Source of the DNA: Lysobacteraceae bacterium SCN 69-320
GTDB lineage: Bacteria; Pseudomonadota; Gammaproteobacteria; Xanthomonadales; Rhodanobacteraceae
Assembly: GCA_001725155.1 (NCBI GenBank)
Contig: MEFP01000017.1
Span: 2,338 to 66,337, forward strand
DNA: 64,000 nucleotides
Reading direction: 5' to 3'
Positions 9,641 to 48,678 of this stretch are shown here, piece after piece. Both the position numbers and the translations under genes were made by a program. Numbering within the stretch: the first letter of the stretch is position 1; each line of letters starts with the position of its first letter. Below the pieces are notes generated by a model, which worked only from the letters and a program-made list of their open reading frames with translations, did no database searches and was not told the origin of the DNA.

Positions 9641-9735
9641 GCCGGTGTGCGCGCCGTCACGCCGGCGCCATGTCGTGCTGGTTTCTGCACGGGTGGCGGC
9701 GTAAAACGGAACGCCTCTCGCGACGGAGCTTCACC

Positions 9736-11058
9736 ATGCGCCTCACTGCTGCACTCGCTGCGGCCGCCTTGCTGGCGGCCGCGGCCACGCCCAGCCCGGC
9801 GGCACCGCCGGCCGACCTGTCCCTGGTCCGCGTGCCGAACGCCTCGACCACGTTCTCCACCCCGGTAGCCCTGCGCGCGCCGAACGACGGCAGCGGCCGC
9901 CTGTTCGTCGTCGAAAAGGGCGGCTCCATCAAGATCATCAAGAACGGCGCGTTGCTGGCCACGCCGTTCCTGACGCGCACGGTCACCTCCTCCAGCGAAA
10001 GCGGACTGCTCGGCCTGGCCTTCCATCCGAACTTCGGCAAGGCCGGCCTGCCGCACAACAACGAGTTCTACGTCTTCTACACGCGGCCGTCCGCCGATCC
10101 CAGGCTCGGCACGACGCCGGACCAGGTCGTCGCACGCTATACGGTGCCGTCGCTGGATTCCGACGTGGCCGATACCAACGGCACCATCGTGCTGCGTATT
10201 CCGGATCTGGCCGGCAACCACAACGGCGGCGACATCCATTTCGGCCGCGACGGCTACCTGTACATCTCCTCGGGCGACAGCGGCGACCAGAACAACCCGC
10301 ACGGCTTCGCCGAATGCCTGTGGAAGAAGCCGGCCGACAGCAACCGCAACACCTGCGGCACGAATCCCAGCGGCATCCAGTACTACCTGCTCGGCAAGAT
10401 GCTGCGCATCGACGTGGACAATCGCGGCGGCACGGTCACGGCCGACATGTGCGGCTCCAACGGCATCGCGCCGGCCGAATACTCGATTCCGGCCGGCAAC
10501 CCGCATGTGGCCACGAGCAACACCTGCGACGAGATCTGGGCGCACGGCTTCCGCAATCCCTGGCGCTTCAGCTTCGACCGTGCCGACGGCCGCATGGTGA
10601 TCGGCGACGTCGGTCAGGGCAGCTACGAGGAAATCACGGTCAACCCCGACGCCACCGGCGGTCTCGACCACGGCTGGAGCCGCTGCGAAGGCCGTCATTA
10701 CTTCACGACCTCGGGCACCGGAACGACTTGCCCGTCGGTGACCTCGACCGTCGCACCGGTGCTGGAATACAGCCATTCGGCCGGCTGCGCCGTGACCGGC
10801 GGCTACGTCTACCGCGGACCGTATGCGCCGATGCGCGGCACGTATTTCTATGCCGACTCCTGCAGCAGCGATCTGTGGTGGTCCGAATCCAGCGGCGCCA
10901 CCTGGGATTCCGGCGGCATCAACCGACTGACCGGACTGGCCACGGGCTCGGTCTACGGCTTCGGCGAGGACGTCGACGGCAACATCTACATCACGCGCTC
11001 CAACGGCCAGATCCACCGCATCATGACCGACGGCATCTTCGCCGACGGATTCCAGTAA
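9736..11058 (+). CDS. Secreted PQQ-dependent sugar dehydrogenase (GSDH/sGDH family) with C-terminal DGIFADGFQ tag
   Basis: Signal peptide; RLFVVEKGG, ESGLLGLAFHP, NHNGG.IHFG.DGYLYIS.GD, GKMLRIDVD, EIWAHGFRNPWRFSFD, DVGQ..YEE, GGYVYRG. The real start is ATG 9736, not the 1297-aa track ORF. Confidence 0.88.
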   Translation: MRLTAALAAAALLAAAATPSPAAPPADLSLVRVPNASTTFSTPVALRAPNDGSGRLFVVEKGGSIKIIKNGALLATPFLTRTVTSSSESGLLGLAFHPNFGKAGLPHNNEFYVFYTRPSADPRLGTTPDQVVARYTVPSLDSDVADTNGTIVLRIPDLAGNHNGGDIHFGRDGYLYISSGDSGDQNNPHGFAECLWKKPADSNRNTCGTNPSGIQYYLLGKMLRIDVDNRGGTVTADMCGSNGIAPAEYSIPAGNPHVATSNTCDEIWAHGFRNPWRFSFDRADGRMVIGDVGQGSYEEITVNPDATGGLDHGWSRCEGRHYFTTSGTGTTCPSVTSTVAPVLEYSHSAGCAVTGGYVYRGPYAPMRGTYFYADSCSSDLWWSESSGATWDSGGINRLTGLATGSVYGFGEDVDGNIYITRSNGQIHRIMTDGIFADGFQ

Positions 11059-14189: not shown

Positions 14190-15902
14190 ATGACCACCCT
14201 GTTGCGCGCACTGATCGCTTGCGTGGCCATCGGCCTGGCCCTGCCCGTTGCCGCCGCCGACCTGATCTTCCGCGACGGCTACGAATTTCCCGTGCGCCCG
14301 TCCAGCCGCGGCGAAGCCTCGCGCTTCCTGACCCAGGCCACATTCGGCCCGAGCGACGCCGACATCGACGCCTTGTCCGCAAGCAGCTACGCCGCCTGGA
14401 TAGCCGCACAGGTCGAGCTGCCGCCGAGCTATTTCCTGCCCTACATGCGCAGCCAGGCCGGCATCACCGATCCGCTGCAGCCGATTCCGTTCGCCGAGTT
14501 CCTGCAGGCCTGGTTCGTACGCGTGCTGTCCGCACCCGATCAGCTGCGCCAGCGCGTCGCGTTCGCGTTCAGCGAAATCCTCGTCGTGTCCGAGCGCGGC
14601 AACGGCCTGGGCAACGACGGCCTCGCGCTCGGCGCGTACTACGACATCCTGCTGCGCCATGCGCTCGGCAACTACCGCGACCTGCTCGAGGACGTGACCC
14701 TGAGCCCGGCCATGGGCCGCTATCTGAGCATGTACCGCAATCGCAAACCCGATGCGGCCAACAACATCCAGGCGGACGAGAACTACGCGCGCGAGGTCAT
14801 GCAGCTGTTCTCGATCGGCCTGGTCAAGCTCAACCGCGACGGCACGCCGGTGCTCGTGAACGGCCAGACCGTGCCGACCTACGACGGCGACGTGGTGCGC
14901 AATCTCGCGCGCGTGTTCACGGGCTGGGCCTGCCATTGCGGCGCCGGCCAGCAGTGCGTGCCCGATCCGTTCCCGGTCGAGCCGTTCACCTGCAGCACCG
15001 AGCACGAGATGGTGCCGTACGAGGCGTATCACGACCGCGACCCGAAGCGTCTGTTCGACGGCGTCGTGCTGCCGGCCGGCAGCGACGCACGGCCGGAGCT
15101 CGAACGCGCGCTCGACGCCCTGTTCCAGCATCCGAACGTCGCGCCGTTCGTCTCGCGCCAGCTGATCCAGCGACTCGTCACGAGCAACCCGTCGCCGGCT
15201 TACGTGGAGCGCGTCGCCGCGGTATTCGAGAACGACGGCCGCGGCGTACGCGGCAATCTGGCCGCGACGGTGTCGGCGATCCTGCGCGACCGCGAGGCGC
15301 GCGAGGGCCAGCGCAGTTCGATCAGCTTCGGCAAGGTGCGCGAGCCGCTGCTGCGACTGACCGCGCTGTGGCGCGCGTTCGACGTGGTCTGGGATCACGA
15401 CCCGCTGTTCCCCGACGACCGCGAGATCCACGAAAGCCACAACCAGTCGCCGCTGCTTTCGCCGTCGGTGTTCAACTTCTTCTCGCCGGGCTACAGCCCC
15501 GGCGGCGTACTGGCGGCTCCCGGGCTGGTCGCGCCGGAAATGCAGATCGTCACGGCGAACTTCGCGATACGCCTGGCCAACGACGTGTCCGGCCGCGTGT
15601 TCTGGAGCTATCGCGGCGGACCGATGGACGATCCGCAGTTCGTCGGCGTGCGCTTGGTCCAGCTCGCGCGCTGGGAGCAGTCGATACGGCCCGCGGCGGG
15701 CTCGTCCCAGGCGCCGGCCGGCGCGCTCGACCGCCTGCTCGATCGCAGTACCGAACTGCTGCTCGGCGGCCGGATCTCGCCGGCCCTGCGCAGCCGCATC
15801 CGCGCGCGCCTCGATGCCTTGCCGGCCGACGAGCCGCTGCGCCGCGTGCAGAACGCGATCTACCTGATCGCGACGTCCCCCGAATTCGCCGTGCAGCGCT
15901 AG
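14190..15902 (+). CDS. DUF1800 family protein, exported
   Basis: RFLTQATFG, DQLRQRVAFA.SEILVVS, VTLSPAMGRYL, DENYAREVMQLFSIGL, HPNVAPFVSRQLIQRLVTSNPSPAYV, GKVREP; SD aaggagg. Confidence 0.9.
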   Translation: MTTLLRALIACVAIGLALPVAAADLIFRDGYEFPVRPSSRGEASRFLTQATFGPSDADIDALSASSYAAWIAAQVELPPSYFLPYMRSQAGITDPLQPIPFAEFLQAWFVRVLSAPDQLRQRVAFAFSEILVVSERGNGLGNDGLALGAYYDILLRHALGNYRDLLEDVTLSPAMGRYLSMYRNRKPDAANNIQADENYAREVMQLFSIGLVKLNRDGTPVLVNGQTVPTYDGDVVRNLARVFTGWACHCGAGQQCVPDPFPVEPFTCSTEHEMVPYEAYHDRDPKRLFDGVVLPAGSDARPELERALDALFQHPNVAPFVSRQLIQRLVTSNPSPAYVERVAAVFENDGRGVRGNLAATVSAILRDREAREGQRSSISFGKVREPLLRLTALWRAFDVVWDHDPLFPDDREIHESHNQSPLLSPSVFNFFSPGYSPGGVLAAPGLVAPEMQIVTANFAIRLANDVSGRVFWSYRGGPMDDPQFVGVRLVQLARWEQSIRPAAGSSQAPAGALDRLLDRSTELLLGGRISPALRSRIRARLDALPADEPLRRVQNAIYLIATSPEFAVQR

Positions 15903-33248: not shown

Positions 33249-34427
33249 ATGGCTACGGTTCTGATTCCGGGCATCAAGGGCAGCGAACTCGCCGACAGCT
33301 ATCCGTTGGACTGGCCGGTGCGCTGGAGTCTCGAGGACATGGTGTTCGGCGACGCGTTCGAGAATCCGCTGGATTTCGCCCTGCTCGACGGCCGCTACGA
33401 GGCCAACGACGGCCACCGCATGCTGCCGTCGCGGCCGATCCGCTACGCCTATGGCGAGATGGTCGGCAAGCTGCGCGCCTGGAAGCCGGCCGAACCCCTG
33501 CACGTGTTCACGTACGACTGGCGCCGGCCGATCGAGCATGCGGCGCAGAAGCTCGCCGAATTCTGCGCGGAACTGCAGGGACGCCAGGCGCGGCTCAAGC
33601 GCGCGACCGCGCTGAACTTCGTCACGCACAGCATGGGCAGCCTCGTGCTGCGCTCCATGCTCGCACTGCGCAGTCGCGCCGAACCGTTCGCCGACGTCGG
33701 GCGCGTCGTGTTCATCGCGCCCCCGTTCCGCGGCTCGCTCGCGGCGGCGCAGATGCTCGTCGCCGGCGAACGCGATGGCTGGTTCGGCACCGACGAGGAC
33801 TACCGCAAGATCGCGCGCAGCTTTCCGTCGGTCTACCAGATGACGCCGCATTACGCCGGCAGCTGCGTGGACGAGGACGGCCGCGCCGTCGACCTGTTCG
33901 ATCCGGCGAACTGGCAGGCCAACGTGCGCGACGGCAGCGGCGGTTTCGATGCGCGCTTCGTCGCCGACGCCGAGGCCTTCGCACTCGGCGCCTCGCGTCG
34001 CGGAGGCAGCAGCCCTGCGCCCATGCTCGACGACGCGGCACTCGCCGCGCATGGCGGGAACGTGCTGATCCTGCAGGGCAGCGGCATCGCCACCCCGCAC
34101 CAGCTGACCGTGCAGCGTTCAAACCCGAACAACCCGAACTGGTTCGACTTTGCCGGCGCGCAGAAGGATCTGCTCGGCGACGGCCGCGTGCATCTGCGCA
34201 GCTCGGCCGTCGCCGGCGTCACCCTGGCCGCCTTCGCCGGCGCACTGGATCACGGCCGCGTCTGCCGCGACACGCGCGTGATCAACACGGTCTCGCTGTG
34301 GCTGGAAGGCAAGCGCGCGCTGAAGATGCAGCCGCGCGGTCCCGAGCATGCGGCGGGACGCCGCGGCCGCAGCTATTTCGACGCCTGGGACGGCGACATC
34401 GGGAGCCTGGCGACGCACGTGGTCTGA
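33249..34427 (+). CDS. LCAT/PGAP1-like alpha/beta-hydrolase (lipase/acyltransferase)
   Basis: LIPGIKGSEL, FTYDWRR, THSMG nucleophile elbow, IAPPFRGS, GDGRV, late DHG His candidate. Confidence 0.78.
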   Translation: MATVLIPGIKGSELADSYPLDWPVRWSLEDMVFGDAFENPLDFALLDGRYEANDGHRMLPSRPIRYAYGEMVGKLRAWKPAEPLHVFTYDWRRPIEHAAQKLAEFCAELQGRQARLKRATALNFVTHSMGSLVLRSMLALRSRAEPFADVGRVVFIAPPFRGSLAAAQMLVAGERDGWFGTDEDYRKIARSFPSVYQMTPHYAGSCVDEDGRAVDLFDPANWQANVRDGSGGFDARFVADAEAFALGASRRGGSSPAPMLDDAALAAHGGNVLILQGSGIATPHQLTVQRSNPNNPNWFDFAGAQKDLLGDGRVHLRSSAVAGVTLAAFAGALDHGRVCRDTRVINTVSLWLEGKRALKMQPRGPEHAAGRRGRSYFDAWDGDIGSLATHVV

Positions 34428-45505: not shown

Positions 45506-46846
45506 ATGTCACGCACTTTCCTGCTGCCGCTCATGCTGCTGGCCGCTACAGCCAACGCCGCGACCTATCAGGTCGGACCCACGCGCACCTATGCCAGCCT
45601 GAACCAGCTGTTCGCCGCGCAGGATCTCGGCGGCGGCGATGTCGTCGAAGTCGACGGCAACGTGACCTATGCCGGCGGCGTCGTGGTGCCGTCCGGCGAC
45701 GGCGGCAGTCCCGGCAACCCGGTCGTGATCCGCGGCATCCGCGTCAACGGCCAGCGCCCGCACATCGCCGGCGGCACGAACACGGTGGAGTTCCGCCAGT
45801 CCAATTACCTCGTGTTCGAGGGCTTCGAGGTCAGCGGCGGCAGCGCGCGCTGCATCCTGCAGGGCGCCCACGAAGTGACCGTGCGCGACAGCGTGATCCA
45901 CGCCTGCCCGGCTCACGGCATCCTCAGCACCGATCAGCTGTCGGGTTCGTTCACCCTGGAATATTCCGAGATCTACGACGCCGGCGCCGGCACCTCGCAG
46001 CATCCCCTGTACATCCAGAGCGACGAGATCGCCTGGCCCGGCTCGGTGTTCCGCATGCGCTACAACTACGTGCACGACGGCACCGGCGGCAACCTGCTGA
46101 AGTGCCGCCACGAACGCGCCGAGATCCACTACAACTGGTTCCAGGGCGCGGCCTATCACGAGCTGGAACTCATAGGCCCGGACGAGAACACGCAGCAGGC
46201 CGGCTGGAGCCGCGACCTCGTGCGCGAGGACCAGGACGTCGTCGGCAACGTCATCGTGCACAGCAATCCGGCTTTCGGCGCCGTCATCCGCATCGGCGGC
46301 GACGGCACCGGCGTCAGCAAGGGCCGCGCGCGTTTCGTCAACAACACCTTCCTGCTGACCTCGGGCACGGACACGACGGTGTTCCGCATCTTCCAGGAAA
46401 TGCAGTCGGTGGAGATGCACAACAATGTCATCGACGCGACTGCCGGCGGCGTGCCGCGCATCATCCGTGCGGTCGCCGGCGAGCTGGCCTGGACCGACGG
46501 CCGCCAGATCCGCGGCAGCAACAACTGGATAGAAAGCACGGCGACGTTCGTGCCGGATGCGAGCGAGTGGAGCGCTACCCTGAGCGGCACGAATCCCGGT
46601 TTCGTCGACGCCGCCGGCTACGACCTGCGCCCGGCCGCCGCCAGCGTGCTGCGCGATGCCGGCAACGGCGCTCCGGCCGGTGCGCCGGGCTTCGGTTTCC
46701 CGACTCCGCTGTTTCCGCCGGCTGTCCAGCCGCAGCGCGCGGCGACCGCGCCCGGCGCCGCGCTCGCACGTCCCGTCGACGCCGCGATCGACATCGGTGC
46801 GTTCGAGCGCGCCGGCGATGTCATTTTCGCGAACGGGTTTCAGTGA
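45506..46846 (+). CDS. Secreted right-handed parallel beta-helix protein with choice-of-anchor-Q-like end and C-terminal DVIFANGFQ tag
   Basis: Signal peptide ANA|ATYQVGP; Asn-ladder repeats (RYNYVHDG, HYNWF, VGNVI, VNNTF, HNNVI); PGFVD...YDLRP...S.L.DAG and IDIGAFE. Start moved to ATG 45506. Confidence 0.82.
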   Translation: MSRTFLLPLMLLAATANAATYQVGPTRTYASLNQLFAAQDLGGGDVVEVDGNVTYAGGVVVPSGDGGSPGNPVVIRGIRVNGQRPHIAGGTNTVEFRQSNYLVFEGFEVSGGSARCILQGAHEVTVRDSVIHACPAHGILSTDQLSGSFTLEYSEIYDAGAGTSQHPLYIQSDEIAWPGSVFRMRYNYVHDGTGGNLLKCRHERAEIHYNWFQGAAYHELELIGPDENTQQAGWSRDLVREDQDVVGNVIVHSNPAFGAVIRIGGDGTGVSKGRARFVNNTFLLTSGTDTTVFRIFQEMQSVEMHNNVIDATAGGVPRIIRAVAGELAWTDGRQIRGSNNWIESTATFVPDASEWSATLSGTNPGFVDAAGYDLRPAAASVLRDAGNGAPAGAPGFGFPTPLFPPAVQPQRAATAPGAALARPVDAAIDIGAFERAGDVIFANGFQ

Positions 46847-46990: not shown

Positions 46991-47265
46991 TTCGATCGGC
47001 AGCAGGCGATATTGCCGCGAAGACGTGCACGGTCGTGCGTCCCGAAAATTCATCGCCGTGCGCGTCGAAAGAATCCGAAGCGCCGCCCTGCCGCTTTGAA
47101 TGCCGACGGCGAGGCGATGACGAAATCGTCCGCATCGCGGAACTCGCCATCCCTGTCGCAAGTCACTGGATCGCGCGCATCGCGGCATGAATTTTCCATT
47201 CTCAGAGACCGTTCCGGCGAGCGTTTCCTGTTGCCGGCGACGGCGTGCGTGCGCAGGAAGCTGCC

Positions 47266-47835
47266 ATGTCATCAATGGTCCGTATCGCCGCATGGCTGGC
47301 CTGGCCGGTCTTCGCGATCGCCGTGCTGTTCCTGCTGCTGCTGGTTTTCCTTGCCGCGAGCCTCAGTTGCACTTGCGTCGACTGCAGTAGTTACAACGCG
47401 AGCAGGGCGGGCATCTGGAAGCTCGCGATGTGCGTCGAGGCGTTTCAGCTGGACTGCGGCCGTCTGCCGGATCAGCTCGACGAGCTGATCAGCGAAGTGC
47501 GCCCTGAAGGTTGTGCAGGGCCCTGGGCGCGGGCGTCGGATCTTCGCGATCCGTATGGCAGCCGCTTCGTCTATCGGCGTTCCGCAGACGGCAGCAGCTT
47601 CGAAGTGCGCGGCATCGGACGCGACCGGGTCTATGGCAGCGCCGACGACGTGACGACGAGCGACCGGCCCTGGCCCTGGCTCGAGACGTTCTGGCGCAGG
47701 CCGCTGTGGGACTGCGTGATCGTGACCCTGCCGTGGTTCTCGATCCCGCTGGGGCCGCCGTTGTGGCTCATGGCTGCGATCGTCCGCCGCATACACCGGA
47801 CAGCGCGCCGGTGCGAGGCGACGGCCACAGAGTGA
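47266..47835 (+). CDS. GspG C-terminal (T2SSG)-like domain protein, paralog 1, hydrophobic segments at both ends
   Basis: L...VEAF.LDCGRLP..LDEL, DPYGSRFVY, GIGRDRVYGSADD match the GspG head pattern; no G/F-x3-E prepilin site. Confidence 0.72.
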   Translation: MSSMVRIAAWLAWPVFAIAVLFLLLLVFLAASLSCTCVDCSSYNASRAGIWKLAMCVEAFQLDCGRLPDQLDELISEVRPEGCAGPWARASDLRDPYGSRFVYRRSADGSSFEVRGIGRDRVYGSADDVTTSDRPWPWLETFWRRPLWDCVIVTLPWFSIPLGPPLWLMAAIVRRIHRTARRCEATATE

Positions 47836-48084
47836 ATGCGAGGGAATCTGCCGCGCAGCGTGAATACGGCCGAACTCACCGGGCCGTGTGAATGCGGCGG
47901 AATTTGCCGCGCGGTGCAACTGTGGAGGAATGCGCCACGCGGTGAGAAGGAAGCGGAACTTGCCAGTCTGCTCGCCGGTCGATTGAACGCCGCTTCACGG
48001 CAACCCCCGGCCCCTTTTCATGCATGCCCGACGGTCGCTCTCTCGCGGCGGCTGCGCCGGTGCGTGCGCGTGCAGGAGTCGCTC

Positions 48085-48678
48085 ATGTCGTCATGGATCC
48101 GTTACTTGGGTGCCGGCCTCGAGGTTTGTGCCGGGCTGCTGTTGCTCGCCGCGCTGGTCTCCTGGCTCAGCCTTATGGGCGGCTGCGATCTCGAACACGG
48201 CCGCTACCGCGCCGCGCAGGTCCAGGCGGAGCGGCTTGCGCTGGTAGTCGAGGGATTTCGCAACGACTGCGGCCGTTTGCCGGATCAGCTCGACGAGTTG
48301 TTCGGCGTCGTGCGCGACCGTAACTGTTTCACGACGCCGCCGCGCTTCTCGCAGCTCGTCGATCCCTGGGGCAGTCGCTTCGTCTACTGGCGCGCCGACG
48401 ACAGCAGGACGTTCGAGGTGCGCTCGGTCGGCCGTGACCGTACCTACGGCAGCTTCGATGATGCGACCAGCGGCGGCTGGACCTGGCCTTGGCCGCAGCC
48501 GCCATGGTCCTGGGCGGAGCGCGGCCGGCGCGTCGCTCCGATAGTGATGCTCGTGCTCGCGTTGCTGCTGCTGGGGGCTCTGACGCTGCGGCTGCTCGAG
48601 TTCGCGATCCGCCTCGTCCGTGCGGTCTGGCGCTGGCTCGGGCCGGCCGGAGCCGGCGCGTCGCAGCCCGGGGAATGA
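48085..48678 (+). CDS. GspG C-terminal (T2SSG)-like domain protein, paralog 2, hydrophobic segments at both ends
   Basis: L...VEGFRNDCGRLP..LDEL, DPWGSRFVY, SVGRDRTYGSFDD; C-terminal TM IVMLVLALLLLGALTL. Start moved to ATG 48085. Confidence 0.75.
   Translation: MSSWIRYLGAGLEVCAGLLLLAALVSWLSLMGGCDLEHGRYRAAQVQAERLALVVEGFRNDCGRLPDQLDELFGVVRDRNCFTTPPRFSQLVDPWGSRFVYWRADDSRTFEVRSVGRDRTYGSFDDATSGGWTWPWPQPPWSWAERGRRVAPIVMLVLALLLLGALTLRLLEFAIRLVRAVWRWLGPAGAGASQPGE

Follow-up and report, generated by a model that had tools for sequence, protein, structure and literature searches.

The selection of folded periplasmic proteins for outer-membrane export or display is a long-standing open question. Eukaryotic cells offer an analogy: the peroxisomal targeting signal PTS1 (-SKL, read by Pex5) and KDEL are short terminal peptides that occur on many proteins, are bound by one non-covalent receptor, and exist in lineage variants. 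In the case of type II secretion systems (T2SS), signals are generally regarded as structural and specific to each cargo (PMC7949064, PMC12369372). Pel3 carries a composite loop signal (PMC7949064), and in Vibrio cholerae EpsC's PDZ domain is needed for one cargo only, whose C-terminal module carries transferable, PDZ-dependent secretion information (PMC12369372). Here we consider a 64,000-nucleotide stretch of DNA from Lysobacteraceae bacterium SCN 69-320 (assembly GCA_001725155.1, contig MEFP01000017.1, positions 2,338 to 66,337 of the forward strand; the whole of it is termed the window below), in which three exported proteins bear one and the same kind of nine-residue peptide at a chain terminus, with the consensus D-x-[ILV]-F-x-[ND]-G-F-[EQD].

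We favor, at a probability of roughly 65–70%, the reading that this nine-residue peptide is a terminal address tag read by one shared partner. The tag is small enough for synthesis, fusion, and mutation, which makes the question of cargo selection directly testable. Thousands of Lysobacterales proteins now annotated as "hypothetical" could be flagged as exoproteins by their tags, and the peptide could serve biotechnology as a compact secretion or display tag.

A nine-residue motif at the termini of exported proteins

The three copies in the window are all present where the initial annotation had placed them, in proteins of mutually unrelated Pfam families (GSDH, Beta_helix, and DUF1800). The first, DGIFADGFQ (11029–11055, plus strand; stop codon 11056–11058), ends cargo protein 1, a GSDH-like β-propeller of 441 residues with a signal peptide (9733–11058, plus strand; PF07995 GSDH, E 1.8e-27), whose C-terminus before the stop reads ...HRIMTDGIFADGFQ. 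The second, DVIFANGFQ (46817–46843, plus strand; stop codon 46844–46846), ends cargo protein 2, a right-handed β-helix protein of 446 residues (45506–46846, plus strand) that has the signal peptide MSRTFLLPLMLLAATANA and the C-terminus ...ERAGDVIFANGFQ; its PF13229 Beta_helix match (E 7.2e-5) scores slightly under the gathering threshold. The residues preceding this copy are ..IDIGAFERAG, and a D[IVLF]GA.E motif stands directly upstream of the tail in six tagged proteins; the choice-of-anchor-Q model NF041518 reaches 16.6 bits with the isolated C-terminus and 11.6 bits with the full protein, against a cut-off of 25. The third copy, DLIFRDGYE (14259–14285, plus strand; matrix score 23.6 bits, see below), lies at the mature N-terminus of cargo protein 3, a DUF1800 protein of 570 residues (14190–15902, plus strand; PF08811, E 1.7e-84) that begins MTTLLRALIACVAIGLALPVAAA-DLIFRDGYE. 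Here the motif (residues 24–32) immediately follows the signal peptide and is outside the DUF1800 domain match (residues 45–567). A further match in the window, MVFGDAFE at position 33343, falls close to the beginning of a protein that looks cytoplasmic, and is a chance occurrence. The closest public locus to the window is that of Tahibacter sp. UC22_41 (93% identity).

The initial annotation had called for a proteome-wide search that recorded the distance of each match to the termini, and this search reveals a strong terminal enrichment. The genome scanned (G000, Tahibacter; Rhodanobacteraceae, Lysobacterales) comprises 5.71 Mb at 68.6% GC with 4,306 called proteins. In six frames, the regular expression proposed at the outset, D.IF.[DN]G[FY][EDQ], matches 27 times, and 25 of these matches lie 0–4 residues from a stop codon; a looser pattern yields 68 frames that end in the motif. 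The position-weight matrix built from these frames, applied at a threshold of at least 14 bits, finds 110 sites in the called proteins. Of these, 87 end no more than 8 residues short of the C-terminus and 6 more lie 9–30 residues from it; 3 stand immediately behind a signal peptide, and the remaining 14 are internal. When the residues of the proteome are shuffled, the same matrix finds two sites, neither of them C-terminal. The occurrence of the tag is far above chance, and tagged proteins make up about 2% of the proteome.

The sequence logo is sharply defined: Asp (49 of 58 sequences), a free position, Ile, Leu, or Val (38, 17, and 3), an invariant Phe (58), mostly Ala or Arg, then Asn, Asp, or Ser (29, 18, and 7), an invariant Gly (58), Phe or Tyr (55 and 3), and finally Glu, Gln, or Asp (23, 23, and 10). 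The motif is followed by no residue in 21 cases, one in 15, two in 10, and at most six, and a terminal Pro is frequent. The conserved Gly is encoded by all four codons (GGC 38, GGG 18, GGT 12, and GGA 5) and the conservation thus reflects selection on the peptide rather than that of a DNA repeat.

The 87 proteins with C-terminal tags fall into 44 clusters when any local BLAST hit is allowed to join them, and into 70 full-length clusters. If the most favorable in-frame start is taken for each, 64 of the 68 tagged frames have a signal-peptide-like beginning, including one twin-arginine signal (SRREFLR). Among the carriers are matches to GSDH, Beta_helix, DUF1800, Reprolysin (a metalloprotease), Endonuclease_1 with Big_5, DUF11/CARDB, Sortilin/BNR, DUF5122, and DUF1554. 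The tagged proteins, exported by the general secretory (Sec) or twin-arginine (Tat) pathway, represent at least 44 families without mutual relationship, and the proposal of a common motif on unrelated exported proteins holds well beyond the three cases from which it arose.

Among the large proteins of G000, eight end in a jelly-roll domain of about 185 residues that resembles MAM/InhA domains (g3778, g3373, g4066, g2854, g2848, g0269, g3770, and g3237). The tag follows the complete MAM-like domain in five of the eight, with 11 more residues beyond in g0269; in g3778 it stands between two modules, 25 residues ahead of the MAM-like domain.

The tail is a flexible appendage and not a part of the folds. 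In an AlphaFold2 model of the GSDH protein built from 35 orthologues (predicted local distance difference test score, pLDDT, 87; predicted template-modeling score 0.89), the last propeller strand spans residues 427–431 and residues 432–441 form a coil whose pLDDT declines from 65 to 44. In the model the tail is thereby flexible, exposed, and outside the catalytic fold. Within a set of 55 orthologous GSDH loci, all those from Lysobacterales end in the tail, down to 39–42% identity (Marinicella and an Alcanivoracaceae metagenome-assembled genome), whereas the orthologues of Nitrospirota, Acidiferrobacterales, and Chloroflexi terminate directly after the last strand. At the same position, the Rhodothermales and Eisenbacteria orthologues carry domains of the type IX secretion system (T9SS) type and a Phycisphaerales one has a dockerin-like end; locus L035 has an extra domain of 87 residues, yet ends ..DVIFRDGFDAP. 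Two Thermoanaerobaculia orthologues terminate in a longer sister form, IF[DE]DDFE[TA]GDT..WSS.EP (IFDDDFETGDTTEWSSTEP), which bears on the suggestion, followed here in part, that the motif is spread over Proteobacteria and Acidobacteria. Furthermore, when G000 is compared with the complete 2.4-Mb genome of G028, a tag bearer that belongs to a different family, nine pairs of reciprocal best hits, at 30–55% identity, are tagged in both. For three other tagged proteins of G000, the G028 orthologues end instead in a tripartite tail that includes a hydrophobic helix and basic residues. Separately, two Chloroflexota GSDH orthologues, L045 (..GKLVYVPIAVR) and L049 (..GRSVYAPIALR), share another short tail after the propeller, which from its sequence may be a different short terminal tag.

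In all DUF1800 homologues of tag-bearing genomes, a copy lies between the signal peptide and the core (g1501 in G000, h1603 in G028, and L240 and L246 in G158). The second DUF1800 paralogue of G000 has DAIWRHGFE behind its signal peptide, the G028 orthologue has RTIFESGFD there, and the two G158 proteins have AIFASGFE and TLLADGFE at the equivalent position. In the tag-free genome G024, by contrast, all three DUF1800 copies carry unrelated proline-rich linkers without a tag. The N-terminal copy therefore follows the tag system and not the DUF1800 fold, and sequence context identifies it as the same tag, as the initial annotation supposed. Because the tag is usable at either end of the chain, a reader that depends on the free carboxylate at a set distance is disfavored, and so is a cleavage signal anchored in the membrane.

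Lineage distribution, dialects, and a second T2SS

The short tag was expected to be lineage-wide, and beyond the proteome of G000 it extends across the order. A degenerate DNA pattern encoding I-F-x-[DN]-G-F-[EQ] gives 17–70 matches in 14 of 16 Tahibacter genomes. Nine further genera from this family give none, and the reversed control matches nowhere. With a slightly wider DNA pattern, a survey of 151 genomes locates tags in the majority of the families that make up the order: f3, f4, f5, f6, f9, f10, and f12 have them, f1, f7, and f8 have them in part, and f2 has them in a single genome. The phyletic pattern is all-or-nothing, with dozens of copies in some genomes versus 0–4 in others, and the reversed pattern remains near 0. 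Sampled matches are largely C-terminal (14/20 in G031, 8/9 in G153, 4/6 in G062, and 6/6 in five sampled regions of G029, where one, in a tandem, lies 13 residues from the stop), and several sampled copies stand directly behind signal peptides. The G029 locus L214 (C124:5143-5342) encodes a protein that ends in two tandem tags, ..VFQDGFEGARTGVVFADGFE-stop.

The most informative departure from the consensus occurs in genus g16 of family f7, which is tag-free by the Gly-containing pattern. Its GSDH orthologue ends ..GDPIFQDRFEDGAP. When the Gly position is left open ([h]F.D.FE), three g16 genomes give 85, 33, and 50 matches, as opposed to 0–7 in true tag-free genomes. Among the 93 g16 matches listed (85 from G079 and 8 from G030), 81 encode Asp-Arg, that is, GAY followed by the Arg codon CGN or AGA, and 16 of 20 sites sampled in G079 lie within 8 residues of the stop. 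Gly has thus been replaced by Arg (..F-x-D-R-F-E) across dozens of unrelated g16 proteins. Such a joint change at one position is the outcome expected of one shared trans-acting reader whose specificity shifted and whose clients followed. A milder dialect is seen in Tahibacter, where the last position is Glu, Gln, or Asp and Gln frequently stands for Glu. DUF1800 proteins do not occur in g16, which leaves no N-terminal copy of that kind to compare with the dialect. None of the nine tag-free or g16 genomes searched has an orthologue of the conserved cargo proteins g1965 and g1448.

Recruitment of cargo to a T2SS had been offered as one possible role of the motif, and two features of such cargo are at hand: Sec or Tat signals on the carriers and a T2SS in the genome. 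G000 in fact has two complete T2SS clusters. The first, T2SS#1, is an Xps-type cluster (C1:137-149 kb). The second, T2SS#2, is of the classical kind, with GspC, GspD, and GspE at C3:167.8-172.4 kb, GspF nearby, and GspG–N at C5:8.6-13.5 kb; its GspC (g0620) consists of T2SSC plus a PDZ domain. Orthologues of the T2SS#2 secretin are found in 105 of the 151 genomes, and all 105 are tag-bearing (g16 being counted by its dialect, with 3/9 of its genomes tested); among the 46 genomes without this secretin, 38–41 are tag-free. The association recurs within taxa: in one genus, G109 has tags and T2SS#2 and G024 has neither; six of the 18 f1 genomes have both and 12 have neither; and G158 is the only genome of f2 (Xanthomonadaceae-type) with either. 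In six tag-free f2 genomes (G047, G057, G085, G150, G126, and G142), the T2SS#2 secretin has a weaker homologue (39–47% identity, E 1e-80 to 1e-95), which on sequence probably belongs to a different, Xcs-like second T2SS.

A pair of tandem GspG-like proteins, g2905 and g2906 (window 47245–48678), is encoded directly downstream of the tagged β-helix gene. Both were recovered by jackhmmer from T2SS GspG (E 5.6e-46 and 8.1e-50); each begins and ends with a hydrophobic segment and lacks an obvious prepilin site.

The shared-reader reading and its rivals

In the reading that we favor, the tag would be carried by Sec- or Tat-exported cargo, usually at the extreme C-terminus and sometimes right behind the signal peptide, and all tags would be read by one shared trans-acting partner. 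This partner would dock the free peptide non-covalently, probably as a short strand or a hairpin around the N-G turn. Such docking is the simplest mechanism for a tag that can serve at the start or the end of a chain and that allows a variable number of residues behind it; recognition of the terminal carboxylate and cleavage beside a membrane anchor are poorer fits. The set of tagged proteins resembles a type II secretome, comprising a metalloprotease, endonuclease I, a Tat-signal protein, propellers, and β-helices. Together with the co-occurrence of T2SS#2, this resemblance suggests that the tag acts from the periplasm outward, where the step served may be either recruitment of cargo for T2SS-dependent export or retention of cargo on the cell surface. 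Within the shared-reader reading, export targeting and surface retention or docking are both real possibilities that fall short of an even chance, with export targeting slightly ahead. A more ambitious version of the export reading, for now tentative and with the odds against it, is that the tag, as a peptide of 7–9 residues usable at either chain end, would be the first linear, transferable targeting signal of Gram-negative T2SS-linked export or display, with a dedicated adaptor and with its longer sister form playing the same role in Acidobacteriota. If it were true, the Gly/Arg and Glu/Gln dialects would let the adaptor be found by covariation.

A number of observations weigh against the shared-reader reading and its link to T2SS#2. 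Signal-peptide calls were heuristic, and automatic start calls give 54 of the 87 tagged proteins versus 30% of all proteins. The association between tag and T2SS#2 is phylogenetically structured and reflects perhaps three to five independent events; the co-distribution could stem from joint loss of a whole secretome or lifestyle module. The weaker f2 secretins were counted as a different T2SS and would be discordant if they were orthologues. Five to eight f8 genomes keep genuine C-terminal tags without T2SS#2, which is therefore not required. When the GspC sequences of nine g16 genomes are aligned with those of thirteen genomes of the Gly dialect, the PDZ core of T2SS#2 is almost identical between the two dialects, and the fixed g16-specific columns number two: Phe at position 72, outside the PDZ domain, and Ile in a ragged C-terminal column past the PDZ core. 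The Arg dialect itself was examined in three of the nine g16 genomes. Finally, no reader was found among the gene neighborhood, chaperone–usher, Peptidase_C13, T2SS#2, and blind envelope candidates.

The conjecture that a receptor or machine reads the motif is supported: the Gly-to-Arg switch argues for a shared reader, which is not among the candidates tried. The T2SS proposal has correlative co-distribution in its favor and the f8 genomes and the lack of PDZ covariation against it. Because of these last two findings, T2SS#2 is not considered to be the reader of the tag; from the comparative sequence evidence, it is probably the main export route of the tagged secretome at most, and not its receptor.

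The candidates came from several sources. Around 60 tagged genes, the only recurrent neighbors are pairs of an extracytoplasmic function (ECF) sigma factor and a Ser/Thr-kinase/tetratricopeptide-repeat protein, which are regulators rather than readers. Five such pairs adjoin tagged β-helix-type genes (G000 C2:222089-224989, C15:56935-60229, and three more), and their dedicated role is probably to regulate portions of the tagged secretome. A chaperone–usher-like operon with a tagged gene (G000 C18:58209-65595; h1941–h1946 in G028, L172–L173) encodes two small secreted subunits, a chaperone-like protein, a 788-residue usher-like protein, a 648-residue protein that starts NGSFETGDLTGW behind its signal peptide, and a tagged protein of 279 residues; found in 16/16 Tahibacter genomes and in G028 but in none of the remaining families with tags, it was rejected as a general reader. 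Peptidase_C13 (PF01650) occurs in tag-free f1 genera and is absent from tag-bearing G026, G028, G033, and G037. The G000–G028 comparison, with its 1,457 reciprocal best hits, supplied the blind candidates: an Oar-like TonB-dependent receptor pair (g0735/g0734), g1837, g1434, and g3333, none of which tracks the tag in four within-taxon contrasts.

An alternative that dispenses with a protein reader is that the tag is a self-acting anchor. As an amphipathic acidic peptide, it would bind the phosphates of the lipopolysaccharide core or lipid A through Ca2+ or Mg2+, or else exopolysaccharide, so that secreted enzymes are kept on cells or vesicles; the g16 switch would then track a change of glycolipid. 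The use of either terminus, the sufficiency of some 7–9 residues, the acidic residues at both ends, the two Phe residues, and the lineage-wide dialect all agree with such an anchor, as does the fact that none of the protein candidates tested matched the phyletic pattern. The all-or-nothing distribution and the high information at six positions are nonetheless more typical of protein–peptide recognition, and we regard a self-acting anchor as unlikely.

Covalent processing is somewhat more improbable still. In this scheme an endopeptidase or transpeptidase of the periplasm or the surface would cut inside the tag, for instance after the Asn/Asp, release G-F-E with the 0–4 residues behind it, and ligate the protein to an envelope amine. 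Precedents for cleavage plus ligation exist in PorU of the T9SS and in asparaginyl endopeptidases with N|GL; the conserved [ND]-G-[FY], with a short leaving group of variable length behind it, is similar to the recognition motifs of asparaginyl ligases, and the tag sits where orthologues have cleaved sorting signals. However, Peptidase_C13, the obvious enzyme family, is not correlated with the tag, N-terminal and internal copies are ill-suited to a C-terminal leaving group, g16 has Arg and not Gly after the Asp, and the frequent terminal Pro suggests a tail that is protected and retained.

It is very unlikely that the PDZ domain of the T2SS#2 GspC is itself the reader, with the tag as a linear T2SS signal that adds as a strand in the PDZ groove. 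The EpsC precedent from V. cholerae (PMC12369372) speaks for this arrangement, as does the presence of T2SS#2 in every tag-bearing genome outside f8 and its absence from tag-free f1 and f2 genomes; the f8 tags without a T2SS#2 secretin, a PDZ core that is nearly identical in g16 and the Gly-dialect genus g40, and the variable distance of the tag to the carboxyl end speak against it. Lastly, docking of the tag as the detached strand 1 of a MAM/LamG-like jelly roll into a receptor domain that lacks this strand is scarcely credible: strand 1 of the G000 MAM-like domains, [VL]F[ST]D[DN][IVM]EG...GW, reproduces the h-F-x-[DN]-x-h-E pattern of the tag, and the Thermoanaerobaculia ends extend the match, but the likeness covers only about five positions, five of the eight MAM-like domains are complete and still tagged, and a search of the G000 genome found no jelly-roll domain lacking strand 1.

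Comparison with known terminal signals

The initial annotation regarded the motif as distinct in form from PEP-CTERM, LPXTG, GlyGly-CTERM, and T9SS signals, and noted that a match to a characterized signal would remove its novelty. The distinction is upheld by the absence of a helix or basic tail, by the shortness of the motif, and by model searches, and no such match appeared in Pfam, NCBIfam, or the searchable literature. An NCBIfam hmmscan of the three full proteins and four isolated tails returned no sorting-domain model at E<=10, and no Pfam or NCBIfam model covers the tail, including those for the T9SS (PF18962/TIGR04183). The ultrashort C-terminal motif models of NCBIfam (YLP-box type), compared by match search alone, gave no reported match to the tails at the same E-value limit. 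Nothing relevant to the motif, or to sorting signals of these taxa, turned up in the literature searched. New in this analysis are the Arg dialect, the finding that the N-terminal copy tracks the tag system, and the co-distribution with T2SS#2.

The tripartite signals, namely, PEP-CTERM/exosortase, GlyGly-CTERM/rhombosortase, LPXTG/sortase, MYXO-CTERM/myxosortase, and IPTL-CTERM, share much with the tag: many unrelated exported proteins bear one short terminal signature, the distribution is patchy and all-or-nothing, and the signal occupies the same position in orthologues and possibly follows choice-of-anchor-type domains. Unlike them, the tag has neither a hydrophobic helix nor a basic cluster, is followed by 0–4 residues, and also works behind a signal peptide; it implies no intramembrane or membrane-bound sorting enzyme. 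The C-terminal domain of T9SS cargo (type A/B, PorU/PorV) likewise marks Sec-exported proteins for a step beyond the periplasm. It is, however, a folded domain of 70–100 residues from the Fibrobacterota–Chlorobiota–Bacteroidota (FCB) group, whereas the tag is a nine-residue unstructured peptide of Gammaproteobacteria, and the 9–10 residues after the last propeller strand of the GSDH protein leave no room for such a domain. The outer-membrane β-signal is a terminal aromatic residue that closes a β-barrel, whereas the tag ends in Glu, Gln, Asp, or Pro on soluble propellers, β-helices, and hydrolases.

Two further comparisons bear on how the tag may be read. PTS1 and KDEL, which belong to another domain of life and another compartment, depend on a carboxyl end that is free and held in one register, a requirement that the tag does not share. 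Described T2SS cargo such as VesB of V. cholerae, which depends on the GspC PDZ domain (PMC12369372), and Pel3 (PMC7949064) resembles the tag carriers in consisting of folded enzymes exported by Sec or Tat; the known T2SS determinants are structural or composite, whereas the tag is a linear motif shared by all its carriers, with a link to the T2SS that is correlative.

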